A DNA stretch of 64,000 nt from Mobula hypostoma (Eukaryota): positions 16,678,001 to 16,742,000 of the forward strand of contig NC_086097.1 of NCBI RefSeq assembly GCF_963921235.1, given 5' to 3'. How positions within the stretch are numbered: position 1 is the stretch's first letter; the number at the start of each line of letters is the position of its first letter. Below, in pieces: positions 27,460-52,697 of this stretch. The position numbers and the translations under genes were made by a program. The notes beneath the pieces were generated by a model that saw only the letters and a program-made list of their open reading frames with translations, was not told where the DNA came from and did no database searches.

Positions 27460-27598
27460 ACGGACAGGTGTATTTTGATTTTCCTGCTCTTTTCATTTTG
27501 GGTGCTGGCCTGGCAACTGAGGTGGAAGAATCTTGGAGAGAAACTGATTGAAAAGTGGTTCAATGCTAACAATCTTAAATGCAAGATCTTATTTGAAG
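27460..27598 (+). pseudogene. AREL1: Relic/open exon A of the ancestral AREL1 N-terminal extension (TDRCILIFLLFSFWVLAWQLRWKNLGEKLIEKWFNANNLKCKILFE)
   Basis: 46 open codons starting ACG, strong G|GTAAGT donor, phase 1 joins (G)AT of 45143; resembles the N-terminus of long fish AREL1 proteins as recalled (unverified). Confidence 0.72.
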
Positions 27599-28259
27599 GT
27601 AAGTCATTGTTCTTAGTTATACTGCAATAAGGGAAAAACTGTACATGCTGGGAATTGGAGATAAGAATGGAAATGCTGAAAACAATCAGCAAGGAAAAGC
27701 TTAGTTAACATTTCTAGTTGATGACCTTCCATCAGTCCTGAGACGTTAATTCTGAGATTTTTTTTGGCGTTCTGAGAGGACTGAGGTGAGGAGAGATTTC
27801 TCAAGATTTATAAGCCATTTTTTAAACCAATGTCCATGGTTGAGATTTATAATTTCAGGATTTAAGGCAATGAAATGGATGAAGCAAAGGATCAATTGTT
27901 ATTGACTGGCTGAGCATGCACCTGGAGCCATGTGTCCTGCATCTGCTTTTGTTCTTTGTGCTTTTTTTCCCCCGACAGACCCTATCCAATTAAGAGTGTG
28001 AGCATTAATTAGACCTTAAGATATGGGAGCAGAATTGGGCCGTTCAGCCCATCAAGTCTGCTCTGCCATTCCATCATGCCTCTCAACCCCGTCAGACAGA
28101 GCCATCAGACAGTCTTCATTTGTTAATCCTTTCATTCCTGGGGTCATTCTTGTGAACATCCCCTGGGCTCTCTCCAATGCCAGCACATCTTTCCCTGGAA
28201 CACACATCAAAGTTGCTGGTGAACGCAGCAGGCCAGGCAGCATCTCTAGGAAGAGGTGC

Positions 28260-28295
28260 AGTCGACGTTTCAGGCCGAGACCCTTCGTCAGGACT
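28260..28295 (-). ncRNA. Minimal type I hammerhead ribozyme motif (PLE-associated)
   Basis: Minus strand AGTC-CTGACGA-AGG gtctcgg CCT-GAAA-CGTC-GACT: intact core, stems I/II, palindromic ACGT stem III, GUC cleavage triplet. Confidence 0.85.
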
Positions 28296-28326
28296 AAGGG
28301 ATCCCTTACTCACTCTTCCTTCAGTT

Positions 28327-28362
28327 AGTCCTGACGAAGGGTCTCAGCCTGAAACGTCGACT
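28327..28362 (+). ncRNA. Minimal type I hammerhead ribozyme motif (PLE-associated)
   Basis: AGTC-CTGACGA-AGG gtctcag CCT-GAAA-CGTC-GACT. Confidence 0.85.
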
Positions 28363-28535
28363 GCACCTCTTCCTAGAGATGCTGCCTGGCCTGCTGTGTT
28401 CACCAGCAACTTTGATGTGTGTTGCTTGAATTTCCAGCATCTGCAGAATTCCTGTTGTTTACATCTTTCCTTGGATAAGGCGCCCCAATACAAAACTGCT
28501 CACATTATTGCAAGTGCAATCCGACCAATGCCTTA

Positions 28536-29500
28536 TAGAAACATAGAAAATAGGTGCAGGGGTAGGCCATTCGGCCCTTTGAGCCTGCACCGCCATTCAG
28601 TATGATCATCCAACTCAGAACCCTGTATCTGCCTTCTCTCCATACCCCCTGATCCCTTTAGTCACAAGGGCCATATCTAACTCCCTCTTAAATATAGCCA
28701 ATGAACTGGTCTCAATTGTTTCCTGTGGCAGAGAATTCCACAGATTCACCACTCTCTGTGTGAAAAAGTTTTTCCTCATCTCGGTCCTAAAAGGCTTCCC
28801 CTTTATCCTTAAACTGTGACCCCTCATTCTGGACTTCCCCAACATCGGGATCAATCTTCCTGCATCTAGCCTGTCCAATCCCTTTAGAATTTTATATGTT
28901 TCAACAAGATCCCCCCTCAATCTTCTAAATTTCAGAGAGTATAAGCCTAGTCGATCCAGTCTTTCATCATTTGAAAGTCCTTCCAACCCAGGAATCAATC
29001 TGGTGAACCTCCTTTGTACTCCCTCTATGGCAAGCATGTCTTTCCTCAGATTAGGGGACCAAAACTGCACACAGTACTCCAGGTGTGGTCTCACCAAGGC
29101 CTTGTACAACTGCAGTAGTACCTCCCTGCTCCTGTACTCGAATCCTCTTGCTATGAATGCCAGCATACCATTTGCCTTTTTCATGGCCTGCTGTACCTGC
29201 ACGCCCACTTTCAACGACTGGTGTACAATGACACCCAGGTCTTGTTGCACCTTCCCTTTTCCTGATCGGCCACCATTCAGATCATCTGTTTTCCTGTTTT
29301 TGCCACTAAAGTGGATAACCTCACATTTATCCACATTAAATTGCATCTGCCATGAACTTGCCCACTCACCTAACCTATCCAAGGCATCCTGCATCCTCTT
29401 AGCATCCTCCTTACAGCTAACACTGCCGCCCAGCTTCGTGTCATCCGCAAACTTGGAGATGCTGCCTTTAATTCCCTCGTCTAAGTCATTAATATATATT
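28536..29500 (-). mobile_element. Young CR1 LINE 3' fragment with open ORF2 C-terminus
   Basis: ISKFADDTKLGG upstream of the 259-aa ORF 28615..29394 (WQMQFNVDKC, LVRPHLEYCVQFWSP, RLRGDL, FFTQRVVNLWNSLP); TTTCTATG tail. Confidence 0.93.
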
Positions 29501-30304
29501 ATAAAGCTTCAGCATTGCATCCTCACTTTTCAAAGGTTAAAAGGTTAATTTATTATCAAAACATGTATCCATATACAACTCTGAAATTTGTCTTCTCCAG
29601 ATAGTCATGAAACAAGAACATGAAAGTCATTCAGAGAGAAGCATCAAATCCACCTGCCCCCCCCACATAAAAAAGAATGGCACCCCAATCATCAGCCTCT
29701 AAGACCTACCTCCCCCCGCACAAAACGGAACATGAATATTAACCTTCCCAATAAACAGCCCCTCCTCCACACAAAAGAACTAACAGGACACAACAGAACA
29801 TCAACGCTCAAACACTTCCCCTCGCACAATAAAACTGAAAAGGAATGGGTGACAAAAAAAAAGTATAAAAGCAATCAATCTGATAAATTCCGCAGTCCAT
29901 AACACAATAGTCCAATTCATAAATGCAGAACAACAATACCATCCTCCGATATCACTGGCATTTATCGAAAGAGAGGGACACCACACGAGGCAGAGAGGCC
30001 TACCCGCCTGCTACAGCAAGCTGCACAGCGATAAGCCGCTCACAGACCCCTCCATGGTAGTGATCAAAAGGAAGGCAGTCGGTGTTGAACTCTCACTTGC
30101 CATCCCCATTCACCCTGATGTCTTAATCTTCCTTGACACTTTAACCAGTAATAATGGGCGCTTTAACCAGTGAAATAGTCAAACATTGGCTTGCACTCAT
30201 CTCAAAGTTTCTTCGCATTAAGCATCAGGGTACGCACTTGCTTCCAGGAACCCTCTGGGAGACATTTAAGGTGAAAAACAGATGGAAAATAAGAAAAAAA
30301 ATTG

Positions 30305-31690
30305 TATTCTAGTCCTCATGAAATGAATGCTAACATTGTATTTGTCTTCCAACTCAACCCCAAGTTGACCTTTAGGAAATCCTGCATGAGGACTGCCAAC
30401 TCCCTCTTCTCCCCATCTACAAAATAGTCGACACCTTTATTCTTTCTGCCAAAGTGCTTGCCTATGCACTTCCCTACATTATATTCCATCTGCTACTTTG
30501 CCCAGTCCCAATATGGCTAATTCCTTCTGTAGGCATCCTGCATCCTCAATACTACCTGCCCTTCCAACTATCTTCGTACCGCCTGCAAACTTGCCCACAA
30601 AGTCATCGATTCCTTCATCCAAATCATTGGCATATAATGCAAAACGAAGTGGTCCCAACACCGACGCCTGCGGTACATCACTAATCACAGGCAGCCAACC
30701 AGATAAGCCTCCCTTTATTCCCACTCTTTACCTCCTGCCACTTAGACAATCTTCTGTCCATTCTAGTACCTTTCCCGTAATACTGTGGGCCTTTGTTAAG
30801 CAGCTTCATGTGCGACACCTTGTCAAAGGCCTTCTGAAAATCCAAGTGCACAACATCCACTGATTCTCCTTTGTCTATCCTGCTTGTTATTTCTTCAAAG
30901 AATTCCAACAGATTTGTCAAGCAAGATTTCCCCTTAAGGAAACCATGTTGACTTTGGCCTATTTTATCATGTTCGTCCACCCTGAAACCTCATCCTTAAT
31001 GCTTAGAATGCAGTGTACTCGATCCAAAACATTCTTGGCCCTGGCACCTGGGAGAAAACATATCATCCGGATGTCTCTTTCATGTCCACCAGATCTGCTT
31101 TCTGCTCCTTTATTTATGGAATTCCCTATCTCTACTGCACTCCTCTTCTCCCCCTTCCCTTTTGAGCCACAGACTTGGGTCCTGTGGCATCTCCCTGGTC
31201 GGTTGTTCTCCTTCCCCCAACAGTATCCAAAGCGATATACTTATTATTGAGGGGAACAGCCACAGGGGTACTCTGCACTGTCTATTCCCTTTCTCTCTTC
31301 TGACAGTCATCCAGGGATTTGCTTCCTGCAGCTTAGGGGTGACTACCTTCTTGTAGCTCCTATCTATCAACTCCTCATTTTTCTGCAGTTCAGTGCTCTT
31401 TGTGCAGACACAGTTGTTAGGGAAACTTGGAAGTCTCCCAGAGATCCCATACCTCACACTAAGAACATGGTTCTACCTCCAGATCCATTCTCAGTGCACT
31501 TGCTCTGTATTGACAGAAAAAAAACTTACTAGAAACTTGGAGCTTCAACCTGTTCTCTCCCAAGCCTGCTGAGCCAAAGCCAGACCACTCTAATAATGCC
31601 AGCCTCACACAATGGCTGTTCCACTTGCACCTTTTTTTATTGAGCAGGAGTAACATCCAGAAAATACTGCTTTTTATATGAAACAATGAG
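30305..31690 (-). mobile_element. Fragmented CR1 (ORF1 and RT pieces)
   Basis: SQHGFLKGKSCLTNLLEFFE..LDFQKAFDKV; VPQASVLGP..KFAGGTK; WMTVRR ORF1-like piece. Confidence 0.85.
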
Positions 31691-32529
31691 TTTACTATAT
31701 GGTTATCAATAATTATCTATGGCACTTCTAAAATAGGATTTGAATACTGCAAAACATTTTCAGTTTTGACACTGAATCTAAATTCAAAATGCCATTGGAA
31801 CATTTCAAAGACTGATATTGAGAACTTGATAATCTCAGATGTTTAGTCCAGTGTCTAGAGCTGGTGTGAACCCCTGTATGAAGTTTGTTTGACAGCTTAG
31901 TGAAATATCTTCTGGCAACTTGTATTTTTCTTTTTTGGGTTTGATGTCTACCACCATCTTATCAAGGCATGTTGTCATGCTGACAGTTTGCTTTCTTGAA
32001 ATTGAAGTGACTCCAGAAACATACCATTTTGACACAGGTGGTTGGACTTGGACCTCAATGGGTCACAGTTGTGTATAACTATCTTGTAGCTTAACATCAG
32101 AATGTTGCTCCTGACAGAAGTGAGATCAAGATTTGTGTATTGTTTGTAGCACTTAGTGTTAATAGAGCTGGGATCATGAATCAGACAAAGCTCCTGTAGT
32201 TTATCCATGCCCAAATTTCTTTACAAATTCAGCTTTGGCATTGTGACTGTAGTTATTAATAAAACTACAATAACAATTCAAGTTTCTTTTTGGATTTATC
32301 AAATACTAAAGGGCTTAGCTTTAAGGTAGAGGGGGAAAGTTTAAAGGACATTTACGAGGCAAGTTTTTTGACACAAACTGGGAGGTGCTGCCAGGGAAGT
32401 AGCATGATAGCAACTTTTAAGAGGCATCTAGTCAGGCAAGTTACCAGGCAGGAAATGGAGGGATAAGGGCCTGTGCAGACAGATGGTATTAGAACGTAAA
32501 CAACAGGAGTATAGGAGTGGAACCAGGCG

Positions 32530-32967
32530 TGGTCATCTGCTGCTGTTACCCACCCACTTCAAGGTTCACTGTGTTGTACATTCAGAAATGCTCTTCTGCA
32601 CATCACTGTCATAACGTGTATTTGAGTTACTGTCAACTTTAACCAGTCTGGGCATTCTCCTCTGACCACTCTCAATAGCAAGGTGTTTCTTGTTTTTCAT
32701 ACCCTTCTCTGTAACCCTGCAGACTGTTGTGTGTGAAAATCCCAGAAATTAGCAGCTTCTGAGATATTCTGTCTGGCACTGATAATCATTCCACAGTCGA
32801 AGTCATTTGGATCACATTTTCTCCCCATTCTGATGTTTGGTCTGAACAACAACTTGAACACATCTGCATGCTTTTATGCATTGTGTTTCTGCCACATGAT
32901 TGGCTGATTTGGTATTTGCATTGACAAGCGAGTATTCTGGTATACCTAATAAAGTAGCCACTGAGTG
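32530..32967 (-). mobile_element. Tc1-like relic (same family as 262-1655)
   Basis: End CCTAATAAAGTAGCCACTGAGTG|TA; decayed transposase N-terminus. Confidence 0.68.
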
Positions 32968-33038
32968 TATGTTGTAAAATTTGTTGCCAAAAAGACCAAA
33001 GTGCTTGTTCCTGTTCTGCACTGTTCTATGTTCTTTGT

Positions 33039-33343
33039 ATAGGCATCCATTAGTCTCATGAGACCATCGATTTGCACCTTGGAAGGTTTCCAGGGTGTAG
33101 GGCTGGGCAAGGTTGTATGGAAGACTGGCAGTTGCCCATGCTGCAAGTCTCCTCTGTCCATGCCATCGATGTTATCCAAGGGAAGGGCACTGGGGCCAAT
33201 ACAGCTTGGCATTGGTATCATCGCAGAGCACTGTGTGGTTAAGTGCCTTGCTCAAGGACACAACACGCTGCCTCAGCTGAGGCTCAAACTGGCAACCTTC
33301 AGATCACTAGACCAAGGCCTTAACCACTTGGCTATGCGCCAAC
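33039..33343 (-). mobile_element. tRNA-derived CORE-like SINE (same family as 2092-2403)
   Basis: End-to-end similarity to 2092-2403. Confidence 0.85.
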
Positions 33344-36300
33344 GTGATTGGCTGATTTGTATACGTTCTTTTTATACGTAGTTCCAAATGTTTAAATTTC
33401 TTTTTTTGGGATTTCTTCACTGCTGAGATTAACAGTTCCTCAACATTTAAATTCAATATCTTGATATTATTATTGTGGGTTATTGACGTTATCCTGATAA
33501 ACAGCTGAATTTCTAAATATAGTACTGCTGTGAGAGAAGGTGAGAAGCCAGAAAATGGAGTTGATTGCAAGAAGACAAAGGCTGGCTGAATGGGTAGATA
33601 AATGGCAGATGAAATTTCATATAGGAAAGTGTGAAGTGATGCACTTTGGCAGAAAGAGCAAGAGGATGAGTTTATTGTGATATGCAGGTGCATTGAAAAA
33701 ACTTGCAGCAGCATCACAGGCACACAGCATTAGATTCAAGATTCAAAATACATTTAATGTCAAAGCATGTATAAATTATACAATCTTGAGATTTGTCTGC
33801 TTACAGGCAGCTACAAATCAAGAAACCGGAAAGAACCCAATTTTAAAAATAAGACCAACACCCAATGTACAGAGAAACAGAAAATAAAACGCAAATCATA
33901 CGAACAGTGGAAGTGAGCAACAGCAATCGGAACCAAAATCCTTAGATCTGAATACCTGGAGTAGGCCCAAAGTCTCAATTTCAGTTCTTCATATTTGCGG
34001 GGCAGATCACCACGAAGCTCACAGACATGAAGCCCGGCGGCCAGCGCTGTCTCACAGCCTCAGTGCAAAATTGGCATGCCTCTGGTCCTGACACCCTGCC
34101 TTTCCAGTCTATCTGAGCCAGTGTTTAAATTGTCCAAACAGCGGATCATACCTTACATTGGGATCCAGGCCCTGTTGCAGCAAAACGCTCTGGGCCAAGA
34201 CTACACCATTCTTAACTTCTCCAAGCCACTCGGTGCTTAGTGTGATCCAACCTTGCACCTGGGTTAGCTGGATGGGCATCGAAATTCCTTTGCCTCAACT
34301 CCTCCTCTCTGAAGTGCGCACTCCAGCTCCATCTGCATCAATTTTGCAACGCACCCCTTTTCTCCTCCCTCAAATTCACTTCACCTTTACTGGCTTTTTC
34401 ATTGTTTGCAGAAATGGTTTACCATAATTTACCTCTGAAAAGATATTATTAATAATGTTTTAGTCAAATTTCTTGCCTTCGAAGTGCTGGTAAGCTGTTG
34501 CTGTCCTCCAGTAGTGTTATCTTAAGCCGAAAATCAGACAGAGACACAACATTAACAAGAAAACATGAAGTAAACATAAATTATGTAAGAAAGCATGCAT
34601 TTTGAACGAAAAATTAACAAAAAGTAATTGTTCTAAAGGATGTTCAAGATCAGAGGGACTTGTCTTTGAAAATGACAGGGCAAGTTAAGAGAAAGGTAGT
34701 AAAGTATATGAGACCCTGGGATTCATACCTAAAGGCTTAAAGAACAAAAAAGTAGTAGAGTTACATGGTGAGCAGAGATTACATCTGGAGAGTTGTATCC
34801 AGTTTTTGGATCCTTAAATTTAGAAGGATGTAAAGATCTGAGCATCCAGAAAAGATTGACTGGAATGATTCAAGGAAAGAAAGATTTCAACAATTGGGTC
34901 TAATAAAATCAGTGTTGAATTAAGGAAGGTTGAGAGAGGTGTTGAAAGAGATGCACTTAACCATGACTGGTTTAGATGGGGTTAATAAAGAGAAACACAT
35001 TTTAAAAATTGAATGAATGATAAAGGTGGATGTGAGGAATAGAGTTTTTATTTACAGGCTAATCGTGATCTGAAACTCTGCCTGCTGAATTGCTGTAAAC
35101 AGAATCAATCAAGAGTAATGAATAAATACTCAAGAAAGAGTAATTTGCAGGAAGTAGAAGCACAGGTATTCTGGATTTGTCTCCTAGTAGCTGGCATAGG
35201 CTTGAATGCTTCAATGAATTGGTTTATCTTGATGTGTTATCATTTTTTAAAATACAGAAATAGACTTTTGAGCAATCTTGATAGAGAGAGATCATTGTTG
35301 CTGTTTGCTGTAGTAAGAGAAGTGATTGTGCAATAAAACTATTTTTGTCTTCTGCATCTCCATTGTTAAAATTAATATTTTCATTTTTCTGCTGTTCATG
35401 GCTGATCTGTAGATAAGCTGTGTTCACCAACACAAAAGATACAGGTGCTGGATATCTTGAGCAACAATCACAAAATGATGGGGGATTGGGGGATTTCAGC
35501 AGTTCTGACATAGCTTCAGGAGCATTGGAGGGAAGGTTTCACTGCCACTTGGATGAAAAAAAGGTTCCTAATACTGTCCTTAAAACCTCAGCTCCAATTT
35601 TCATATTTCTTTTGTCATGACAAATAGATCACACTTTATCCTTTGATAGCCCAGGGATATAAACTACCATCATGCTGTCTGTTCTTGCAATCTATTCCAT
35701 TATTATGATGGTAAAATTACATTCAGTACTCTGTCTAAGTCAGTTTTGTCTTCCTGAGGTGCAGCACAGAAATGAAAGTTCTGTTTCAGATAGGATCTAA
35801 CCAGAATTTAATGTAACCCTTCTAGTAAGGGGAAATAAATTCTCAGAAAGAGGGCTGAATATCAAATGAAATATGTAGACAAAGAAAAAGAATAAGATTA
35901 ATGCTCCAGAATTGAATGTAAAATCTAAAAGTAGTCAAATCAAAATTGACTGGGGGTGGGGAGGGAGAAACTTGGTTCATTCCTTGACAGAGATGAAATG
36001 TCACTGGTGAGGGTATCTTCTGTGTGGACCCAGAATTCCTGTACCTTTGCCATTGGGAACAATGCTTTAAGCTGCCCAGTTATCAGGTTCTGTAATTCCT
36101 ATCCCTATGCCTTTCAGCTTTATCTTAATATTCTTTTGAACCAACTCTACTGCATGCTTAGTATCATCATTTTTGCTTTGTTTACTTTTGTGCAGTGCCA
36201 TGGAAACATATTAATATATTAAAATTCAAAATGAAACAAAAGTTCCTCATTCAGTTTAAATTTCTGCTGCTCTATTCATTATCGGTACCTTATGCAGTTC

Positions 36301-38359
36301 AGAGTTTTTTGAGGCATCTGAATATTATTACTGCAGCAGATTACATCCCAGATAAATTTAATCTGCTACACTTCCAGTATCTGTTGGCTATGGGAGATAC
36401 TAAAATGTGGTTGTGAGTGAGACACTGTCACTCCCATTGGGTGATTATAAAGTGTTTAAGAATGCAATTTCTCATTTGAAAAGTAAGGTCAAAGAAAGCG
36501 TTTTAATTTTGTAGTGGTTCTGGTCAGTTAATGGAAAGTGAGCAGTGTACCTTGGGATAGGTGCAGTGGCAGTTTTCCAAGGTCACTAGTGATGCAACTA
36601 AGAGACGAAGGCAGGCAGCCAAGTTTTATCAGGCAACCAGCTGTGGCCATTTTAGTTGACTGGCAGGAATCCATCGTAGCATTTGGTGGATATACCACAA
36701 TACATTTTGTTTTACTACTTCAGAGATGCCCCTGGCTTCTGCTTGCCTGAATTTTGAAAACTCATTTGAGTTCGAAAGAATGTACAGGTAGCTTGTCGTG
36801 ATACAGTTGATAGCACTTGACGCATGCATGTTTTTCTCGAGAAAAATGAAATTGTTCAATAGATTTACATCTTTTGTTTGACTCTGTGTCACCAGCTTCT
36901 TATAGATAAATTACAGAATAGAATGTGCTGTCCTAATTGTCTATGGGTGATCTACGAAACAGGGTTAAGCTGCAGGCTGTTGGAAAGCTGCAGCTATATT
37001 GTGCTCACAATTATAAAAATGATAGTAGTAAGATGATAAGCTTTTTACTTCTTTCAAAGTGTCCTTTAATAAAGAAAATGATCTTGCATTAATATAGTTT
37101 TTTCCGTATTGTTTTCAGGAAATACTTTCAGCCAATGAAGTACTTTTAAGTGCCCAGTTACCCCACTTAGCTCTGCTCCTCAAAGTGCTGATTCATTATG
37201 GCATATTTAGTCCCAGGGTCCAAAAGCTCATGAGCACATGCCATTTTGAAGACGTGCACAGTTTGAGCACTATGCATGGCTGTACCAGGAATCTGGCTTG
37301 AATCACTGCTGTAACTTCTGGCTGTTGAGCTTATTATCAGAGAGGAACCTCTGGGGTGTGGGGAGCTGTGCAAAAAATTAGGAGAGCTGAACCTACTAGA
37401 TGGTGTTACATCCAAAAGGTGATGAGAGAGATTGTGGGATCTGGGCAATTTGTTATACCAGTCATTTTTAAGTCCCCAGGAAAGGTCTGTGTTCACCCTA
37501 CCAGCATTCTAAACCCTGCATCTCAGTGGCACAGCCTGCCACTGGCTCCCATTCAGCTTGCACCATCTCTCATAGACAGTTCTTCATGTGTGGGGTAATG
37601 AGATCCTTATTTCATAACTGTAGAAGCACTTGTGGGGGTGGGCAGGGTTTAACATCAGACTCCTTGCACAGCCTTGCTAAAGACATTAGGCTCCTGGGAA
37701 AGTGTCCTGAGAGTAAGGTGTAGTCGTTGATGCAAAGTAGAAAGTGTTTTGTTGTTTATAGTCGTTCTGTGATTATTCGCGGGAACTGTTGTGATGTTCT
37801 TTTTATCCGATTTCTTTTAGTTTTGAAGGCAATGTATGAAGAAGAGGAGGATCAGCTTTTCAAGTGTTCTTCTCATTTGTGTCACAATTGGCTGCTGGGA
37901 ATTTGGAGTCCACCTTCATTCGGAGTTGTCATTAGTCTTATTTTAGCAGCATTTAATAATTCAGATATCATGTAAACAAAGAAGCTCTGAAAAAAGTACA
38001 GTAAACTAGTCCTGCATTAAGGATCCATTTAATAATTAATAATTCTGCACAATCTAGTTGATATCTCCTAGAAATATTTTTCTTTACTAACTATCCGCCA
38101 TGAGATGTTTCTTAATATTTAAAAACGCAGATACTAAATGCATGAATATTCCTTCATGGATGAAAAAGATATGGGAATTGTGAGCTGTCTCCAGTGCACC
38201 ATTGGTGTGTTGGTTGTTAACATAAACTAAGCGATTTACTGTGTATGCTTTGATGTACATGTGATAAATAATCTTGAATCTTGCTTGGATAGGCAATAGT
38301 TACAAAAAAACTCCTACCTGAGCAACCACAAAAATCAAACTTGACTCATCAATTTGAGA

Positions 38360-41300: not shown

Positions 41301-41430
41301 GATATAAAGTGTATCCTTGGATGTTAACTCTCAGCTATGATCCTCTTTCAGCCATGACTCAGTGATGCCCTCAATGTTATAACTACCAATCTCTAACTGT
41401 GCTACAAGATCATTTACCTTATTCCTTATG
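38360..41430 (-). mobile_element. Decayed CR1 fragments, separated by a Rex1 insertion
   Basis: 3' CR1 sequence at 38360-39110; EN/tether piece (WSKGNYRGMREELA.IDW) at 40080-41430. Confidence 0.75.
39112..40080 (+). mobile_element. Rex1/Babar LINE 3' fragment
   Basis: [29 protein letters not shown]; (CTGATT)n tail. Confidence 0.88.
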
Positions 41431-43699
41431 TCAGTTACTGTCTCAATGCCAATAATTTGGAATGGTTCTCTTATTTCTGTTATCCCTTAATGGGAACATT
41501 ACAAGTAGAAGCAGGAATAAGTAACTTGGCCTCTTATGCCTGCTTTGCCATACAATAAGATTATATTTCTAATTCCTTATCTCCATTCACATTGTAAGAA
41601 AATAAGGAGGACATTCAACTGACTGAACTTGTACTGATTCTAAGAGCAATTCTATTCTCTCACTTACCTGTACTTTCCTTGAACCTATCCTCTGAAACAC
41701 ATCAACTAACATGCCCTGATTCTCCTACTGTCTCATGGAGTAAAGGCAACTTGTAGTAGCTGGTTAACCTTTAACCAGCACCTCCTTGGAACATGAGAGA
41801 AAACCAGAGCACCAGAGGAAATTTGCATGGCCATAGGGCAAAGGTGCATACCCCACATGTTCAGAATAACCCAGTTCACTCAATTTCACTTTATATATTT
41901 TTACCAAAGTGAGGCATAGGACCAGAACTAGGCTATTTGTGGCATTGAGTTTGCTCTGCTTATTGATCATGGCTTACTTATTTTTCCTCTCAATCCCATT
42001 CTTCTGCCTTCTCCCCATAACCTTCAAACCATTTCTAATCAATAACCTATCTGCCTCTACTTTTAAATATACCCACTTCAGAAACTTAATAAATTATTGT
42101 TTGTGTGCGTCTGAGTCTTGATGTCAGCTGCTTCCAGTTCAGTCCTTGGCCAGCACACTATTGTGGCTGGGTATCTAATGATTGGTAGGGCAAATGTGCT
42201 GATGGCCCTGATCTTGTTCTTCCCATTCAGCTGGCTTTTAGATTTACTGAGAAGACGCTGGGTGCAAGAATCAGCAGGACGCTGCCGGAAGTTGGGCAGA
42301 GCCCACCAGGAGCAGAGGCTAACTCTGGGAACTGCTCGGGCTCCACGCTGCCATGGAGCAGGGGGTCTGGGATTCAGGTCTTGGTGGAGGGGGTCAAGTA
42401 GGGGTCTTGGGCTGAACCCCTCGCACTTGCACTACATTTGCCCACAAAAACCTCTGGAAGAGAGTGACAACTGAGTCATGCTGGCTCAGACATTGCCCAG
42501 ATTAACAAAGTCCTTGCCAATGTTTGGGGAACGGTGATCATTTGGTGATAAAGTGGCCAAACCATAAATGGATGAGATTGGATGAAAGAGGAGAGAGAGA
42601 TAACTTGTATATTGATTGACTTCTATAATTCAAGGATAGTTTTCATAATCAGTAACTAATGTTTAGCAATGTTAATTACAGTTATCATTTCAATTTAACA
42701 TCCGAACGGGGTTGCTAAATTTAGTCCCTGTTGACCTATTTTGATCACACTTAATAACTTATTTTAATAAGAATATTTTGTGTGCTTTGGTGGATCTATG
42801 AAATAAGATCAGCTGCACGTTTCAAGTACAATATGTGTACAGCAATCAGTTAGGGGAAGCATTGATCAGACACCCTGGGTTTCACTTGAAGTTGCTTTTT
42901 AGTTAACCCTAACTTATTTCCAAATTTGATTTTTTTGTTCCTTCAAGAACCTTCTGTTCTTGGCAATGACAAAGGAAGACTTTTGAGCCACTTCTCAGAA
43001 TGCACAAATGGCTCAAAGATCAGATCAGTATAAGTGCCCCAATCTGGAAGACCTAGATCAGGATGAGGGAGACAACTCTGACTGATGAGATGGCAAAAGC
43101 AGACCTCAATATATTTGAGATGAATTAAGAATACTTTTTAAAGTGGAACTTGTGAACCAAATGTTATTTGGCTCATACCTAACAGCAACAATTTATATTA
43201 CATAATTGAATAAATGGAATGAATGCATACAAATTATTATCAGTCTTGAATGCTGGACAGGTCCCTTCTTGAATATATTTATTTTAATTAGTAAAAGTGA
43301 AGTGGTTCATTGCACTTAGTCAATTTTTTGTTTATTTTCCTATGTGTACAATTCTCATGAATTGTCATCAAACTGAAACAGTAACATTTTCCCAACATGT
43401 AGGACTCAAATGGTCTTTCCAGGCACTTGGTGTATTGTACTCAGCATTCACAACGTGGCTTCCTCTGCAGTGGAGGATCTGAATGCAGATTGAACAATGG
43501 CTTTGCAGTGCATCTACATTTAGTCTGCAGGAGTGGTCCTCCTCTTACAGTTGCCAGATGCATTGATTCTCCATCCCAGATCTACTCTAACCTATCTGTC
43601 TCTGGATTCCTACACTGGTAGTGAGGCTCAACGCAAGCTTAAGGAATGTTGCATCAGTGATGATGAATTCTTCAACTTTAGGTAATTTACTATTTCTTT

Positions 43700-44166
43700 T
43701 GGGTGGCGGGGTGGCGATGCGTCTCCGCCAAAGGAGGCGTAAGGTGCTCCTTCCCTCCGCTAGCCTGCAGGTCACCCTTGGGCAAGATGTCGCACCTGCT
43801 TAAGCCCCTGATCAGGGTCATGTGAAGCTATGGGAGCAGAAGGAGGCGTAAGGTGCTCCTTCCCTCCGCTAGCCTGCAGGTCACCCTTGGGCAAGATGTC
43901 GCACCTGCTTAAGCCCCTGATCAGGGTCATGTGAAGCTATGGGAGCAGGTGGTGGATATCACAAGTCCAGGTTATGCAACCACTGATGTCAGACAGACAA
44001 TCTCTGAAGAGTATTGATAATGGCTGGTGTCACCCATCTTGTAAAGACACTGCCCAGAAGAAATGCAACGACAAATCACTTCTGCAGGAAGATTTGCCAA
44101 GAACAATCGTGGTCATGAGATCACGATTGCCTAAGTCATACAAAATGGCACATAATTATGATGTTG
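43700..44166 (+). mobile_element. Same RTE-dependent element, with an internal perfect 109-bp tandem duplication
   Basis: Similarity to 5320-5687; units 43731-43839 and 43840-43948 identical; flanking ACTATT(T/C)CTTT repeat. Confidence 0.75.
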
Positions 44167-44179
44167 ACTATTCCTTTCT

Positions 44180-44475
44180 GTGGGCGCCATGATAGCATAG
44201 CGATTAGCGTGATGCTATTGCAGGTCAAGGTGTTGGAGTTCTGAGCTCAATTCCAGCACCATCTGTGAAGTGTTTGTATGTTCTTTCCCTGTGACCGTGT
44301 TGGTTTCCCCTGTGTGTCTGGTTTCCTACCACGGTTCAATGATGTACTGGTTAGTGGGTTTATTGGTCATTGTAAATTTTCCTGTGATTAGGTTACTGTT
44401 AAATAGGTGGGTTGCAGTGCGGTGTGGCTCGTTGGGATGGAGGGACCTGTTCCATGCTGTATCTCTAAATAAATG
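44180..44475 (+). mobile_element. V-SINE
   Basis: Head + TTTGTATGTTCT..GGTTTCC V-domain + CTGTATCTCTAAATAAA tail. Confidence 0.65.
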
Positions 44476-45142
44476 AAATGGTCATTTATGATTGTATATC
44501 TGTAATTTTTGACACTTTTTCTTTCTTCATGTCTATAGTCTGACTTCATAGGCTTATATGTTAGGATTGCTCACAGTCCTACTGTCTGAAAACCTAGCAC
44601 AGATAAAAGAAAATGCAGATTATGCGTCATCTATCACATTAACCCATTTGGCATCACCCTATCATCGATACTCACTTTGGTTCTTACTTTTCTATCTCCT
44701 ATCTTCTCTGCAACTGGAAAATACCTGTTTTCTCTCTTTCCCAACTTTGACAAAGGACTTGAATCCAAGATGTCAACTCCATTTCTTTCACAGATGCTTT
44801 CTGACCTGCTGAATCCTTTCCACATTTTCTGTTTTTATTTCTTATTTCCAATGTTTGCAATTTATTTGATTTTAATTAAATATCATTTTTCCCCTGTCTT
44901 TACAGATACTCTGGGCCTGTTTTCTGTTTCCAGCATCTTTTTTACCCTTCTAGCATTTATTGTGATTATTTTTGTTATTTACTTCAGGATTTTTATACTT
45001 CATTTACTCTATGTGCATTAACTTCACTTACCATTGTTATAATATGAATCCTTATCCCTTCAGAAAGCTGTTTTATGTACTATCAGTGATCTGGTTATTC
45101 CGAGAACAGACAACTTAGTCTTTTCTTTTGTTTTATTTACAG

Positions 45143-45303
45143 ATGTGCAGAGATTAGAAGTTTGCTAATATTCAGTCCGTTCTGAAGGGAAATTCCTTGG
45201 GCGACTGTGTGACTCGGGAGTTAAAAGCAGCCTAATACCAGCTGGTAAAGAAGAGCCCTCGAGAGTAGCTGTGTACACAGGGTTTAAAACTTTATTATTA
45301 TGT
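45143..45303 (+). pseudogene. AREL1: Relic exon B of the AREL1 N-terminal extension (DVQRLE..frameshift..AA*YQLVKKSPRE*LCTQGLKLYYY)
   Basis: Long polypyrimidine tract + tttacag acceptor, GTATGT donor at 45304; stops at 45233 and 45266; phase 2 joins 52308. Confidence 0.72.
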
Positions 45304-45549
45304 GTATGTTTTAAAAGAAAATTACATTGTTGAACTTATTTCCTTTCTTGAACATATGATGCTGGTATAACTGGAAAAAACAGGCTAACTGGGAATGAGT
45401 GCTAGAAATTACGTTAACTATGTATCCCAAATGGCAATCAGCAAGAAGTATAAACAAAATTTGGTCATGAGGTTCTGCAGATGTTGGAAATGGAACGTAG
45501 AAGAGTACAGCACAGTACAGGCCCTTCGGCCCATAATGTTGTGCCAAAT

Positions 45550-45790
45550 TTGAGCAACAGGCACAAGCTCTGGAGGAGTTCAGCAGGTCAGGCAGCTTCT
45601 ATGAAGGGGAATAAATGACCAATTTTCAAGCCAAGACCCTTTATTGGGGGTGGGGGGTGTTGTGGGAGAGCAGGGCAGAGAAGCTAGAATAAGCAAGTGG
45701 GTGAGAAGGGGGAAAAGTACAAGCCGGATGGTGATAGGTGACACCAGGTGAGGGGGAGGATGAGAGAGTAGGGAAGGAGGAATGGGAGAG
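45550..45790 (-). mobile_element. Decayed PLE pLTR fragment
   Basis: ctggaggagttcagcaggtcaggcagc..tttcaagccaagaccctt followed by a purine-rich arm. Confidence 0.6.
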
Positions 45791-46065
45791 TCTGGACGGT
45801 GATAACCTCTTCTATCTATCACCTTCCAACTTCTCACTGTTGGAGAAGGTTTACTTAAAATGGATGGGTTGTCTTCTGACTATAGAATAGAGGGTCTAGA
45901 CATGTATCTGCTGGAATGGAGAACAGTGAGAGGGAATTTATTTGAAACACAAGATCCTGAGAAGTCTTGATTGATGTTTTCTTTTTCAGAAGATTCCAGA
46001 CCTAGGAGTCACTGTTTAAAAGCAGTTTGCATACATGTCAAATAAATTAGTGATTTCTTTGAGTA

Positions 46066-46426
46066 ACATAGAATCATAGAAAACCTACAGCACAATACAG
46101 GCCCTTCGGCCCACAAAGCTGTGCCGAACATGTCCTTAACTTAGAAATTACTTAGGGTTTCCCATAGTCTTCTATTTTTCTAAGCTCCATGTACCTGTCC
46201 AGGAGTCTCTTAAAAGACCCTATCATATCAGCCTCCACCACCGTCGCCGGCAGCCCATTCCACGCACTCACAACTCTCTGCGTAAAAAGCTTACCCCTGA
46301 CATCTCCTCTGAACCTACTACAAGCACCTTAAAACTGTGCCCTCTTGTGTTAGCCATTTCACCCCGGGGAAAAAGCCTCTGACAATCCACGCGATCAATG
46401 CCTCTCATCATCTTATACACCTCTAT
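46066..46426 (-). mobile_element. CR1 3' end
   Basis: IEVYKMMRGIDRVD.QRLFP..TRGHSFKV; TTCTATG-like tail. Confidence 0.82.
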
Positions 46427-46905
46427 TGTATTTGGAGCTCTCTTCTTCCAAGGGGAGTGAAACCAGTGTATTTCAAAACTAAGGGAGAGGTAAATAGCTT
46501 CTGGATAAACAAGGACGTGAAAGGTTACTACAGTAGCTGGAAATGCAGAGTTATAGCAGAGCTGCTTCAAGAATCTGAAGGCCTACCTTTCGTCGTAATT
46601 TATGTTTTTGTATATTGAGACATTTGGGAAATAGTCCTGTGCTGTGTTTCAGGTGCAGTGGATACAGTAGAGAAGGAGTGCATTCAGTTTGATGTCTAAG
46701 TGCTTGTTGGAGCAATTACCTCGCACCTAATTTTCAGTCTTTTTATTTTAAGTTTCAACAGATTTTTCATGTGGCACTGCTCATAGTGGATCTAGGCCAA
46801 GGAAATGAATTTAAGTGGGTTGTTTGCTATTTATAAAACAAATGTAACATGCCACAAACTACCATCGCAGCCAATAATCGACAATCCAAATACAGTAATA
46901 TGGCT

Positions 46906-47122
46906 CAAACATGAGGAAATCTGCAGATGCTGGAAATTCAAGCAACACTCATCAAAGTTGCTGGTGAACGCAGCAGGCCAGGCAGCATCTCTAGGAAGAG
47001 GTGCAGTTGATGTTACGGGCCGAGACCCTCGTGATGAAGGGTCTCGGCCTGAAACGTCGACTGTACCTCTTCCTAGAGATGCTGCCTGGCCTGCTGCGTT
47101 CACCAGCAACTTAGATGTGTTT
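46906..47122. mobile_element. PLE inverted pLTR pair, centrally truncated through both hammerhead cores
   Basis: Near-palindrome; TSD TACAGT(A/G)ATATGGCT at 46891-46905 and 47123-47137. Confidence 0.87.
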
Positions 47123-47360
47123 TACAGTGATATGGCTAATGAGACACTGCCTTGCAGCAACAGAGACCCAAGTTCAAAGCTGACCTCAGGTGCTATCAGG
47201 AGAGAATCTGCACCGTCTCTCTGAGCACATCAGTTTCCTCCCACATCTCAAAGATGTACTTGTTAGTAGGTTGATGGGCCACTGTAAATTTCCCTTGGTG
47301 TGTAGTTGTGTGGTAGAATCTGGGGAAGATGATAGAGAATGAAATGGAATTTGTTTAAAA

Positions 47361-47440
47361 CAGTAGTCCCAAACTCGAGTCTATAGACCCCTTGGATAAT
47401 GGTAGGCATCCATGGCATACATAAGGATTTGGAGACCCTG
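47361..47440. mobile_element. hAT-type MITE, degenerate copy
   Basis: Reverse copy of 2670-2749; 8-bp TSD GT(T/G)TAAAA. Confidence 0.65.
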
Positions 47441-47946
47441 GTGTAAAAAGCTGTTTGATGGATGTTGAGGGCTCAATAGTCGGAAGTGCTTGTTTTCATG
47501 CATGATGATTCTGACTACTGTAACTGAAACACACATTTTAATAAGATCTTTTTTTCAAAGTGGTGATTTCACATGGACTCTCTGAATATATGGTTCCTGG
47601 GCATCTGTAAATAAAATTTAGAATCTTGGGAGCAAATTATATTCACAGTCTGCATATATGAAGATATTGCCAAATTAAGAGCAGTGGTAGCAGATGAATG
47701 TCTGCAAAATGAAAAGCAATTTTGCAAGCTCTGTCAATGAAAGTAGAAGCAAGAAGCAACCGAATGTGACAGTGAGATGATTTATTACCCTTGATCCTTT
47801 CTGTCTAGGTGAGAGAATCTTGACTAAAATAGAAGTGTTTAAAAATGGAAACAACAGGAATTCTGCAGATGCTGGAAATTCAAGCAACACACATCAAAGT
47901 TGCTGGTGAACACAGCAGGCCAAGCATCATCTATAGGAAGAGGTGC

Positions 47947-47982
47947 AGTCGACGTTTCAGGCCGAGACCCTTCGTCAGGACT
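47947..47982 (-). ncRNA. Minimal type I hammerhead ribozyme motif (PLE-associated)
   Basis: Reverse complement AGTCCTGACGAAGGGTCTCGGCCTGAAACGTCGACT. Confidence 0.85.
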
Positions 47983-48674
47983 AACTGAAGGAAGAGTGAG
48001 TAAGGGATTTGAAAGTTGGGGGGGGGAGGGGAGATCCAAAATGATAGGAGAAGACAGGAGGGGGAGGGATGGAGCCAAGAGCTGGACAGGTGATAGGCAA
48101 AAGGGGATACGAGAGGATCATGGGACAGGAGGTCCGGGAAGAAAGACAAGGGGGGGGGGACCCAGAGGATGAGCAAGAGGTATACTCAGAGGGGCAGGAT
48201 CTCCCAGTGGCCACACATTTTAATTCCACATCCCATTCCCATTCTGACATGTCTATCCATGGCCTCCTCTACTGTAAAGATGAAGCCACGCTCAGGTTGG
48301 AGGAACAACACCTTATATTCCGTCTGGGTAGCCTCCAACCTGATGGCATGAACATCGACTTCTCTAACTTCCGCTAAGGCCCCACCTCCCCCTCGTACCC
48401 CATCTGTTATTTATTTTTATGCACACATTCTTTCTCTCACTCTCCTTTTTCTCCCTCTGTCCCTCTGAATATACCTCTTGCCCATCCTCTGGGTCCCCCC
48501 GCCCCTTGTCTTTCTTCCCGGACCTCCTGTCCCATGATCCTCTCGTATCCCCTTTTGCCTATCACCTGTCCAGCTCTTGGCTCCATCCCTCCCCCTCCTG
48601 TCTTCTCCTATCATTTTGGATCTCCCCCTCCCCCCCCCCAACTTTCAAATCCCTTACTCACTCTTCCTTCAGTT

Positions 48675-48710
48675 AGTCCTGACGAAGGGTCTCGGCCTGA
48701 AACGTCGACT
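48675..48710 (+). ncRNA. Minimal type I hammerhead ribozyme motif (PLE-associated)
   Basis: AGTCCTGACGAAGGGTCTCGGCCTGAAACGTCGACT. Confidence 0.87.
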
Positions 48711-49264
48711 GCACCTCTTCCTACAGATGCTGCTTGGCCTGCTGCATTCACCAGCAACTTTGATGTGTGTTGTTTAAAAATGGACAAGTTTTAGACTCAT
48801 TGAATTCGAATTTTCTGATATTTTTAGAACTTATGCACATGATTTCCTTAAATTCCACCATTCACCTGTGATTTCATGTCCCTTGATATTTTTAGTAGGT
48901 GAAATATTTCAAATGTAGATGTTGTGATAACAGGAAATCTTAAACCAATGAGATTTGGCTTAAATGCTAAGCCGTCAGAGCAGGGAGAGCACAATAATCA
49001 ACAATGAAATGTTCCCAGGTTGTTTCTAGTTACAGAGGGTGAAATATATTTAGTGGCACACAGATTGCCCGATTGTATGCAATATCTTTTCAGGAAAAGC
49101 ATTCACACTGTAATCATAAAGCAAACCATTGCAGATGCTGGGAATCTGAAATAAAAATAAACTAAACTGAAAATACTCAGCAGGTTAGCTGGTGTGTGTG
49201 TGAAAGAAACAGAGTTAATGTTCCTGATTGTCTTTTTTCAGATGAGCATTTTATGCTAACTTTT

Positions 49265-49960
49265 AAAGGGGGTATATAGAGAAAGGGTCGTACACTTGAG
49301 GACAAAGAAGGTATTTATACATGGAGCTGGAGAAAATGAGTGAGCTACTAATCAAGTACTTTGCATTGAGATGCATGAAAACGAAGCACATGGAAGATAG
49401 TGAGATTATGGAGTATGCTAAAATTCTAGGACAGGATGATATTGATGAGGTATTTGGATTCTTGAAGAACACTAAGCTGAATGAGTCCCCGGGATCTGAT
49501 GGGATATATCCCACGTTATTGAGGGAGGCAAGAGAGAAGATTGCCAGGGGCTTGTTAGGGATCTTTTTTGTCACAAGTGAGAACCCAGAAGACTGGAGAA
49601 TTGCTAGTGTTATTCCTTTGTCTAAGAAGGGCAATAGAACCAAGTCATGAAGTTCTAGGCCGGCGAGTCTTTTATCAGTGTCAGGGAAATTATTGGTGAA
49701 GATTCTTAGAGATGTATGTACTCACACCGGGAATGGCATAGACTTGTTCGGGATAGACTGCCGGGTACCAATTGCTAAGAATGTGGGATCAGGGGAGTGT
49801 GACAGAAGGTCCGGGTGCAAGTATGTGCACAAATGCTTGAATGTAGCAAGGCAAACTGAGAGTTGTTAGCAATACATATAATGTCAAGGTGCTCATAAAA
49901 AGAGGCACTTTGGTACACAAGTATAGAAGTTATGTTGAGCCTATACAAAACACTGCTTTT
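49265..49960 (+). mobile_element. Decayed CR1 ORF2 fragments
   Basis: ESPGSDGIYPTLLREA..PEDWRIASVIPLSKKG. Confidence 0.75.
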
Positions 49961-50599
49961 CCTTTCTATCTTATATACTTCAAGATCATTTTACCCATTG
50001 TTAATCTTGTTGATGATCATTTCCACATGAAATTCATCACTGCACGTGTAATGAAGTAATTTGCCCTGCAGTGTGAGTTTCAGCCTGAGTGGCATACATT
50101 GAAGGTCAAGGCTTCACAAAAGAACTTTTCTTTTTGCATAGTCCATTAGAGTTGTTTAATTATTAGTTAAAGGACACTCTGCAGACATTGGGAGACCTGA
50201 CTTGGCAACTCTGAAATTGACTGCAAGTAGTTCATTCACCTTCCAAAGTCCATGAAGAATGCTCGATGCAGCACTTCACTCTTGAGCTACTTTTGCATTA
50301 GGTGCCCTAGCAGTGACAGTAATGCAGAACTCCACCATCGGAGGTTTCAAGGATGATGTGGTAGCCACTGAGAGAGACTTGAGCACCTGGGCAGGAGATC
50401 TAGACGTGTCCATTCTTCGAACTCTATTCCCAGAGATTTCTCAGATTTAGCAGGCTTTGCTTGAACCTGTATGATAAGCAACATAATCTGCAGGCTCAGA
50501 TTTTCAAAATCCGTAATTCCAGATAAGTGAACTTTTGCAGGAGTGCCATTAGCATGTCCCTCTCACCTATTGATTTCTTTGCACATGTGCAGTCCCTGG

Positions 50600-50660
50600 T
50601 GATCTTCATCATCATCTTCATCACCATCATCATCACCTTAATCATCACTATCATCCTCCC
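50600..50660 (+). repeat. Degenerate (CAT/CAC)n microsatellite
   Basis: catcatcatcttcatcaccatcatcatcacc..atcatcactatcatc. Confidence 0.6.
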
Positions 50661-50952
50661 TGACCTCTTCCCACCTGCACCATTAAGCCCCAATTTCTAC
50701 ACTGCCTTTAAAGCCACTGGACTCCATTTCCTCCCTTTAAGCTCACCAGGTTCACTACAGAACATTGTCTGCTATATCTGTTCCTGTTTTTCCTGGTCTG
50801 TGTTCTGCTATTCTGGAAGGGGAGATATGTTGGTGAAGGGGACAGGGGATGGGGAAGGTAAAACTATGGGGCCCTCACATCACACCCTGTGAAGACAAAT
50901 AAGAAGAGAGCACCACGTATATTGACCTAAAAATATCTTCATGTTGATGTAA

Positions 50953-51183
50953 CAGCACAGATAGTGTAGTGGTTAGTGCAATGCTATTACAGCTCAAAGC
51001 GTCAGGGTTTGGAGTTCAAATCCGGTGCCATCTGCATGAGTTTGTATGTTCTCTACATGGCGGGGTGATTTCCTCTGGATGCTGCGGTTTCCTGTCACAG
51101 AAACATGCGTGGTTACTAGGGCGATGCAGCTCGATGGGCTGGAAGGGTCTGTTCTGCACTGTCTCTCTAAATAAAAGAAAATA
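50953..51183 (+). mobile_element. V-SINE
   Basis: TAGTGTAGTGG A box, GAGTTCAAATCC B box, V-domain, CTCTAAATAAAA tail. Confidence 0.68.
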
Positions 51184-52307
51184 AGATAATAACACAGCTA
51201 TTCTGCCAATTTACTGAACAGGGATGTAATCATTATAATGAAATTTGTGGTGGACTTTGTATGGTCTCTGCTTGAGGAATGGCCTGTCAGCGTAAATTGA
51301 GGGATCTTCTTCACCTGATGAGGTGCTGCCTTCAGGTGGGACCCATCGCAGCCAAGCAGTAACTTTCTTAAGTTCTCACTGTTTTCATCATAATGACAAA
51401 AGGGGAATGATAGTATCCAATGTTTAGCCTCTTATACAAGGGTTGGAAACAGTAATTAATAGTGTAGTAAAGGTTGAGAGGGTGGCAAAGGAAGGGATTT
51501 TTTTGAATTGGGGCAGTGTGTTTCTGTCTTTTGTCTGTCTTCCCTCCCATGGCAAAAGTATGGCCATTGAAAAAGAACTGTTTTTAGTGGTCTGCAATCC
51601 TTTAACATACCTTGTTTGATATGACATATCATATATAAAATTTATTGCAACGTTGCTCTATTGTGTTAGAACATTTTCTTCTGGAGGGGACAATTCAAGC
51701 TGCCTCCTGTGAGGGTGTTCTTTTGGAGGTCCAGGTTAGTCTCCTCCCACCACCCCGAAACAAAATGTTCAATTTGCCTGTGTTTTATTCACTTCATCGT
51801 CACTTCTGAAAGTCTGGGATCTCTCTCTGTAGATGTATTTACTGTTGCTCTATCTGCCAATGGGAGTGTGCTACTGTATTAAACACTCACACAGCAAAGC
51901 ATTGGCATCTGTGGTGAATTTTAGCAATTCCTTATGAGTGGTAAATTCAGTAACGGTCTTCTGCACTTTTGAGCAATTTTACGACAGTTTTGTTTTGAGG
52001 TGAATATGCAAGTAGAAGTAAATACAGTGACATTTAAGCACACCAAAACTAACTGCAATCCAAAACTGCAGCATGGTTAGACCACAGTTGGAGTGTTGTA
52101 CCTAATCTGATCACCAGTGTATAAGAAGCTGTGAAGATACAAAATAGTTTGCATTCTAATAAATTAATTGGCTTTTGATATGGCTGGGTTGCACTTATCC
52201 TCTTTGCTCTCACTAGATGCTTTTAAATTGGTTTCATTTAGAAATAAGTAGTTAGGCAGTTTATGCTTGACATTGTATCAGCTTTCCAATTCCTTGTCTT
52301 CATACAG

Positions 52308-52519
52308 GTTGAAATCACTAGGGTACGGCAATCTAAATGATCTGGTCAAGCTTGGCAGCAAGTCACAAATAGCTCTCAGACTGGGACGACTTCTGTGGTG
52401 GTTACTACAAGTTTGGTAGGAAGGTCCTCCAGCTTTCAAGGGGACTTCTAGAGTGGGAGCACAAGGTTAAGTTTGTTTACAACTTAGCCAGAGGTGCAGA
52501 GCTGAAAAGTGGTCTATGG
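52308..52519 (+). pseudogene. AREL1: Relic exon C of the AREL1 N-terminal extension (LKSLGYGNLNDLVKL..fs..DWDDFCGGYYKFGRKVLQLSRG..VYNLA..fs..RAEKWSM)
   Basis: catacag acceptor, G|GTATGT donor; two compensating frameshifts; entry-frame stops at 52417 and 52468; in-frame ATG at 52516. Confidence 0.75.
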
Positions 52520-52625
52520 GTATGTGAAAATTTAGACATTCATTTAAAATATTCCGACCATTACATCTTCTTTTTCCTCAGTTTAGGGAAGAATGTGTGT
52601 CCTTAATTTCAACTCTTTCCCACAG

Positions 52626-52697
52626 TGGGAGCAGTATTTTTTACCTCTAGTGTCATACTTTGCACTGTAAGAAGAGACCTGATGATTGTCGTCATTG
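52626..52697 (+). CDS. AREL1: AREL1 exon containing the mammal-type start (V-GAVFFTSSVILCTVRRDL-MIVVI-G; ATG at 52682)
   Basis: ctttcccacag acceptor, G|GTGAGT donor; MIVVIG corresponds to human AREL1 MFYVIG and splices in phase to 54405. Confidence 0.85.

Follow-up and report, generated by a model that had tools for sequence, protein, structure and literature searches.

Decay of upstream exons and a probable shift of the start codon point to loss of a tandem SAM-like N-terminal module from ray AREL1

In the literature covered here, accounts of the AREL1 (KIAA0317) family focus on the transmembrane domain (PMC12864862) and on the filamin repeats (PMC3673628), and a third report (PMC2837046) has it as an entry in a count table only. 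Human AREL1 is described as an endoplasmic reticulum (ER)-resident protein with a single transmembrane domain at its extreme N-terminus (PMC12864862), and the human-centred picture emerging from these reports, i.e. a single N-terminal transmembrane helix followed by filamin and HECT domains (PMC12864862, PMC3673628), is that of a reduced form of the protein. Within the AREL1/KIAA0317 literature covered here, we found no account of a SAM module in AREL1 or of its loss in batoids. Here we analyze a stretch of 64,000 nucleotides from Mobula hypostoma (contig NC_086097.1, positions 16,678,001 to 16,742,000; hereafter the window), which is identified by its sequence matches as the 5′ end of the AREL1 gene of a stingray-like batoid. 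Our analysis makes it highly probable that the AREL1 of this ray has lost an N-terminal module by decay of the exons termed here A, B and most of C, and suggests that the start of translation has moved to the end of exon C.

The relevant features, in window coordinates, are the following.

27460..27598, plus strand: fossil exon A, covering hydrophobic segment 1 and the first part of SAM-like copy 1; donor GTAAGT.
45143..45303, plus strand: fossil exon B, in which SAM-like copy 1 ends and, after a linker, SAM-like copy 2 begins; acceptor ...tttacag, donor GTATGT.
52308..52519, plus strand: exon C as a whole; acceptor ...catacag, donor GTATGT.
52308..52515, plus strand: fossil part of exon C, in which SAM-like copy 2 is completed and a helical linker follows; the frame is shifted at 52378 and again at 52487.
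52516..52519, plus strand: end of exon C, with ATG (52516–52518) as its last full codon followed by the first base of a split Val codon; likely present start.
52626..52697, plus strand: exon D, in which hydrophobic segment 2 lies and segment 3 begins; acceptor ...cccacag, donor GTGAGT; probably still coding.
54405..54631, plus strand: AREL1 coding exon 2, which encodes the transmembrane helix and extends into the cytosolic part; intact.

Splice boundaries are canonical in exons A, B, C and D, and the junction phases (1, 2, 1) generate the split codons G/AT (D), GT/G (V) and G/TG (V), the following junction (G/GT) entering exon 2, so that the phases of the long-form module chain into the AREL1 frame. 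Four segments at these positions, with AG/GT boundaries and these same phases, had been proposed in an initial annotation made from the letters alone, and the junction peptides quoted there were reproduced by our joined translation. The gene downstream is well preserved: exon 2 (75 amino acids, aa) is 100% identical to Hemitrygon akajei AREL1 isoform X2 and 87–91% identical to sharks, and the remaining AREL1 was recovered as 16 colinear exon matches in the next 66 kb, covering residues 2–845 of Mobula AREL1 X1 at ∼90–97% identity per exon.

To what the upstream exons correspond is apparent from AREL1 proteins of other fishes. When exon 2 was used as query, 41 of the 49 candidates retrieved were AREL1 proteins, among which a long form of ∼1020 aa is encountered in ray-finned fishes, from bichir and gar through teleosts (Lepisosteus oculatus, 1022 aa), as well as in sharks (Scyliorhinus canicula X1, 1019 aa; S. 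torazame X1, 1022 aa; Cetorhinus, 1021 aa; Mustelus, 1021 aa); the model of the chimaera Callorhinchus has 995 aa. About 203 residues precede the GGI(A/T)VS motif in the intact ray-finned-fish forms, and the long-form proteins indeed show the teleost N-terminal ending ..EKWS..GA...C...RDLMFYVIGG, as stated in the initial annotation. In an 11-species alignment the extra N-terminal region contains 36 invariant columns and has a mean column identity of 75%, by which measure this module is conserved and functional in sharks, chimaera and ray-finned fish.

Comparison with long-form N-termini had been suggested in the initial annotation as a check, and tblastn of seven such N-termini against the window gave significant and colinear matches (in round figures E 2e-16, 4.5e-4 and 1e-15). 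Exon A was matched by Scyliorhinus with an E-value of 2.2e-16 (72% identity over 47 aa) and still by the gar query with 1.7e-6; exon B reached 4.5e-4 with Scyliorhinus and 3.2e-5 with Heterodontus, and exons C and D together 1.2e-15 and 3.3e-17 with the same two queries. The matches to exons A–D all lie on the plus strand and in gene order, and beyond these exons the long-form N-termini gave no other match with an E-value below 0.1 in the window. Control searches with reversed or shuffled queries yielded 0/104 results below 1e-3, the minimum being 0.005. We identify segments A–C as decayed orthologous exons of long-form AREL1.

The decay itself was mapped by a frameshift-tolerant dynamic-programming alignment, with the same outcome for all three shark references used. 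In exon A the start ATG is replaced by ACG at 27460, the frame being otherwise still open. Exon B carries one extra base at 45163, a TAA at 45233 in place of a shark Gln, and a TAG at 45266 at the position of the shark Trp of the EWL motif, whereas the insertions in exon C are of one base at 52378 and of two at 52487. In addition, seven codons have been lost in frame (27489 and 27573 in exon A; 45156, two at ∼45175–45184, and 45253 in exon B; ∼52381 in exon C). Both stops and the ACG had been recognized in the initial annotation, as had the three frameshifts, whose approximate positions (∼45160, ∼52378 and ∼52490) are refined here to 45163, 52378 and 52487. Exons A–C consequently contain no open frame with a start codon: in addition to the ACG, the two stops and the three frameshifts, 13 of the 35 columns that are invariant within these exons are altered in the ray, among them F121, D122, G133, Y136, D138 and L162 in exon C.

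The distribution of sequence identity follows the same pattern. Compared with Cetorhinus, the ray is 69% identical in exon A, 45% in exon B and 61% in exon C, as opposed to 91% in exon 2 (ranges over sharks, 69–71% for exon A and 43–45% for exon B), whereas the older but intact pair Cetorhinus/Callorhinchus retains 75%, 63% and 73% in the same exons and 87% in exon 2. Exon D retains its single invariant column and 10 of its 11 near-invariant ones. Constraint on exons A–C is relaxed in this ray. Six-frame searches of the whole 3.48-Gb assembly with shark exon A+B and exon C-onward proteins matched only the AREL1 locus and revealed no second copy of the module.

Long-read errors are usually small indels, and three of the six disabling lesions belong to this type, so one may ask whether the lesions arose in sequencing or assembly and this animal still has an intact long form. 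The other three are substitutions (ACG, TAA and TAG), and 13 of the 35 invariant residues are replaced. Moreover, four DNA runs, possibly from the source sample, contain a fraction of 1.00 of 51 sampled words of 52240–52760, an interval including both exon C frameshifts, and the independent assemblies and annotations of six batoid genera show no intact module among the models listed. A further four runs, presumed to be RNA of the same organism, contain 0.45–0.57 of the sampled words, none of the listed runs being recorded as RNA. We regard an error of this kind as extremely unlikely, and the lesions as belonging to the ray gene.

Unlike exons B and C, exon A contains neither a stop nor a frameshift, both its indels are multiples of three, and the A/B and C/D junctions are both of phase 1. 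Part of the chain could on these grounds still be translated, for instance as an isoform joining exon A to exon D in frame (G/TG), which would encode hydrophobic segments without SAM domains and depend for its start on a non-AUG codon or on a further, as yet unseen exon upstream. Exon A, however, has no in-frame ATG, an in-frame TGA lies just upstream at 27436, and 5 of its 10 invariant columns are altered (M1, T7, E20, E33 and Y43). As no such isoform is present among the batoid models listed either, we consider continued translation of this kind highly unlikely and retain the reading that exons A, B and most of C have ceased to encode protein.

Where translation would now begin is indicated by the end of exon C. 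The ATG at 52516 is the first ATG of the joined A-B-C-D leader whose frame is open into exon 2, and translation from it through exon D into exon 2 reproduces 27/27 residues of the N-terminus of Mobula hypostoma AREL1 X1. At this last full codon of exon C, a methionine is found in 6/6 batoid sequences covering it, whereas sharks have V, the chimaera A, and ray-finned fish I, L or F. A second in-frame ATG at 52682 corresponds to the mammalian-type start, and Mobula X2 starts MIVVIGG. Since exon D is well kept and the predictions of four batoid genera start at ATG 52516, this codon is likely the present AREL1 start, reading MVGAVFF…. The initial annotation had counted all four exons as fossil; this holds for A, B and most of C, but translation probably still includes exon D together with the final full codon of exon C, such that the fossil ends at 52515. 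The batoid protein would accordingly keep two adjacent hydrophobic segments, compared to one in human.

The loss looks batoid-wide rather than peculiar to Mobula hypostoma. None of the named models listed for six genera (Hemitrygon, Mobula, Amblyraja, Narcine, Pristis and Leucoraja) has an intact module. AREL1 models beginning MVGAVF are those of Hemitrygon (X1, 845 aa; X2, 785 aa), Mobula (X1, 845 aa), Amblyraja (842 aa) and Narcine (X1, 842 aa); Mobula X2 has 825 aa, and Pristis X2 (821 aa) begins MGG. The Leucoraja models X1 and X2 (938 and 933 aa), together with four skate transcript-derived open reading frames (ORFs; P0045, P0047, P0048 and P0051) from contigs of 2.0–5.6 kb, read through a degenerate exon B/C remnant and, in the case of the four ORFs, cover exons B, C and D. 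Because three of these four ORFs hold a whole protein of 928–940 aa within contigs of this size, they must derive from spliced transcripts. In the skate remnant, hydrophobic segment 1 and SAM copy 1 are missing, the Trp of EWL is replaced, and the frame is shifted at the shark WGYFYGDYHKF stretch, where the skate sequence TGATSMLITTSLEGRSS matches the third frame of the window at 52380–52430 with 70% identity. Ray and skate also share the replacement D122>G, in a column that is invariant in 11/11 intact sequences.

A recent loss, private to the species or family, with the short forms of other batoids reflecting annotation gaps or separate events, would be in keeping with the identity of exon A to sharks and its open frame, as well as with the ray frameshift at 52487, which is absent from the skate ORF, where the shark frame is kept, and with the unequal net length of the ∼52378 shift in ray and skate. 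Yet models from four batoid orders are without the module, the ATG at the end of exon C is batoid-specific and common to all six sequences covering it, and the skate remnant is degenerate, shifted at the same spot and marked by the same D122>G. These observations make a recent private loss very unlikely. A single frameshift at ∼52378 shared by ray and skate was considered and rejected, as the net indel lengths, derived from the tblastn frames, differ modulo 3. The initial annotation had described a lineage caught in the course of conversion, which is not borne out by the models of the six genera, all of them lacking an intact module; we place the loss, by inference, in the batoid stem. The batoid ancestor lived ∼200–270 million years ago. 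That the loss occurred independently of mammals, as the initial annotation had supposed, stands: sharks, chimaera and ray-finned fish keep the module, so the batoid loss is separate from the mammalian one.

Several points weigh against the proposed reading. The largest AREL1 cluster was judged from the 15 members listed out of 38, and a long batoid isoform could lie among the rest. The ray and skate shifts begin at the same spot (∼52378) with net lengths that differ modulo 3, so that a single event is not proven, and the sharing of lesions with sharks and other batoids was judged through predicted proteins only. The ATGs at 52516 and 52682 both stand in a weak context (T or C at −3), and the full A-B-C-D leader carries five upstream ATGs, with upstream ORFs of 2–16 codons. 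Splicing of A-B-C-D and the transcription start are predictions from the assembled sequence, from which the lesions were read as well. Finally, exon A is oddly well preserved for old neutral DNA, with 46 open codons, both indels in frame and 69–71% identity to sharks. Chondrichthyans evolve at slow rates, which together with a role of exon A as first or leader exon may account for its preservation.

In sharks with an intact long form, shorter predicted isoforms with alternative 5′ ends are encountered as well (P0054, P0060 and P0062; 825, 915 and 989 aa), suggesting that long and short forms may already have existed side by side at a time when the module was still present.

Separately from the batoids, the Orectolobiform lineage (carpet sharks; P0008, P0058, P0059, P0061 and P0063) may also be losing the module. 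The NCBI AREL1 models of Chiloscyllium punctatum and Stegostoma start MFIVVGG, the long Hemiscyllium model is flagged LOW QUALITY and has several conserved residues changed, and an older Chiloscyllium model is without ∼25 residues of exon C.

Upstream of exon A, the window contains a candidate promoter.

25100..25900, no strand assigned: CpG island, putative AREL1 promoter, ∼1.6 kb upstream of exon A.

This interval has a CpG observed/expected ratio of 0.75–1.03 and a GC content of 0.48–0.55, compared with 0.29 as the window mean; the only other CpG-rich stretch in the window (61.0–62.1 kb) lies inside a long interspersed nuclear element (LINE). A by-eye search near the island found no recognisable first exon of a neighbouring gene. 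Canonical splice sites, NCBI batoid models starting in exon C and the skate ORFs across B, C and D lend indirect support to a possible use of exons A–C as 5′ untranslated region in this ray. With the promoter still located upstream of exon A, the dead exons would continue to be spliced as a 5′ leader, which would account for the retention of their splice sites.

Repeats flank and interrupt the locus. The LINE, located in AREL1 intron 2 (57099–62268, minus strand), contains a 725-aa ORF with endonuclease and reverse transcriptase, a 402-aa continuation and a 339-aa upstream ORF. Reverse-transcriptase fragments (Pfam RVT_1) are present at 11708–14577, upstream of exon A, and at 28618–29508, in the A–B intron, and ORFs at 55780–56560 on the minus strand were recognized by eye as what we take to be the C-terminal part of a Tc1/mariner-type transposase.

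The nature of the lost module was addressed with the intact sequences. Full-length long forms (5/5) gave sub-threshold Pfam SAM matches near residues 28–58 and 88–146, the best vertebrate score being that of gar for SAM_1 (22.7 bits versus a cut-off of 23). Among 11 isolated intact modules, 10 matched SAM_1, 10 SAM_EPH and 9 SAM_2 at E ≤ 0.1, all under the Pfam cut-offs, with best E-values of 3.6e-6, 3.1e-6 and 1.1e-4, respectively. A cephalopod AREL1 (P0117; 957 aa, with HECT and filamin domains), whose 90% cluster includes ‘AREL1 [Acanthosepion pharaonis]’, exceeds the cut-offs with two stretches each for SAM_1 (35.4 versus 23) and SAM_2 (23.9 versus 20.5), and aligns with the vertebrate module in hhalign with a probability of 94.8% (E 5e-8, 148 columns). 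The tandem SAM-like character proposed in the initial annotation is upheld by these matches, sub-cut-off in vertebrates and above it in the cephalopod, and the cephalopod match indicates that the module predates vertebrates. Translations of the ray remnant searched against Pfam matched no SAM family, the MetW and ERG4 rows obtained being at chance level. Hydropathy windows indicate one hydrophobic segment at residues ∼1–23 and another, long one that leads up to the conserved transmembrane helix and includes it (176–231 in gar).

Structural comparison was less informative. An AlphaFold2 model of the module, built from the 11-sequence alignment, is of low confidence (mean predicted local distance difference test score, pLDDT, of 51.8), and with this model Foldseek returned no match at E ≤ 0.001 against the PDB. 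Its first 11 rows, all non-significant, comprise six titled SAM or tandem SAM and four Eph-receptor complexes, which we take to be SAM–SAM complexes. When the module alignment was used as a profile against PDB sequences, four rows were obtained (E 0.32–4.7), none of them a SAM chain. A HMMER search with the module profile in 1.84 billion representatives, a set whose clustering at 50% identity hides tetrapod long forms, yielded 54 proteins at E ≤ 0.001, mostly single-exon fragments that appear teleost-like by eye; word-indexed searches retrieved three clusters with the shark module and two with the skate N-terminus, too few to map the module across vertebrates.

Taken together, the sequence comparisons establish the homology of the exons, their lesions, the relaxed constraint, the absence of another copy and the occurrence of short forms in other batoids, and they suggest the following model. 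Ancestral AREL1 would have carried ∼175 extra N-terminal residues, in which a hydrophobic segment led into two SAM-like domains and then a helical linker; after these residues, a second hydrophobic segment would have immediately preceded the transmembrane helix at which human AREL1 begins. This form is still encoded in sharks, chimaera and ray-finned fish and, more distantly, in a cephalopod. In batoids, translation of exons A, B and most of C would have ceased, upon which these exons decayed; the start would have moved to the ATG at the end of exon C, where sharks encode a valine, with hydrophobic segments 2 and 3 and everything downstream being kept.

We consider the case for domain loss by exon decay solid. 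The locus offers a clean and datable example, in which the start codon has probably been moved in a gene that is otherwise strongly conserved, and it would explain why batoid AREL1 models are ∼175 aa shorter than those of sharks. It also calls for caution in annotation, as gene predictors may read through such fossils, the skate models being an example. Most fishes and a cephalopod carry the extra tandem SAM-like module. SAM domains commonly mediate self-association, which makes the AREL1 module a candidate regulator of clustering at membranes.

A wider reading, which we put forward tentatively and hold somewhat short of probable, would be that an ancestral multi-pass membrane HECT ligase with a tandem SAM module has shed this module repeatedly, namely in the batoid stem, in the mammal line and possibly in carpet sharks. 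The batoid loss would be coupled to a new ATG that preserves a two-segment membrane hairpin, and the dead exons would serve as an obligatory 5′ leader behind a distant promoter. If this is true, the SAM module would be a dispensable oligomerisation or regulatory device of a ligase of ER–lysosome contacts, and the lineages without it would provide natural knock-outs for comparison.

Compared with known systems, the ray locus is closest to the long-form AREL1 of sharks, chimaera and ray-finned fish, with which it shares the gene, the exon order and phases, and homologous residues across all four exons. It differs by the missing start codon of ray exons A–C and their two stops and three frameshifts, and by a protein that is ∼175 aa shorter. 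Human AREL1 likewise is without the SAM module and keeps the transmembrane helix, the filamin repeat and the HECT domain, but the batoid form probably begins 20 residues earlier (MVGAVFF…RRDL-MIVVIGG) and thereby keeps the second hydrophobic segment. With tandem SAM proteins such as Caskin1 and SARM1, the intact module has in common that two SAM_1 stretches are detected in gar, bichir and the cephalopod and that its highest, albeit non-significant, Foldseek rows are tandem-SAM structures; in contrast to them, the vertebrate AREL1 modules remain below every Pfam SAM cut-off and are located between hydrophobic segments of a HECT ligase. Overall, the locus resembles cases of exon-level pseudogenisation with N-terminal truncation and a new start, in that only some exons carry disabling lesions, within a gene that is otherwise intact and conserved, and that the dead exons would persist in the 5′ leader. 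It is set apart from these by remnants that are still alignable even to ray-finned fish, and by a lineage-specific ATG that coincides with the full codon directly preceding the retained part.

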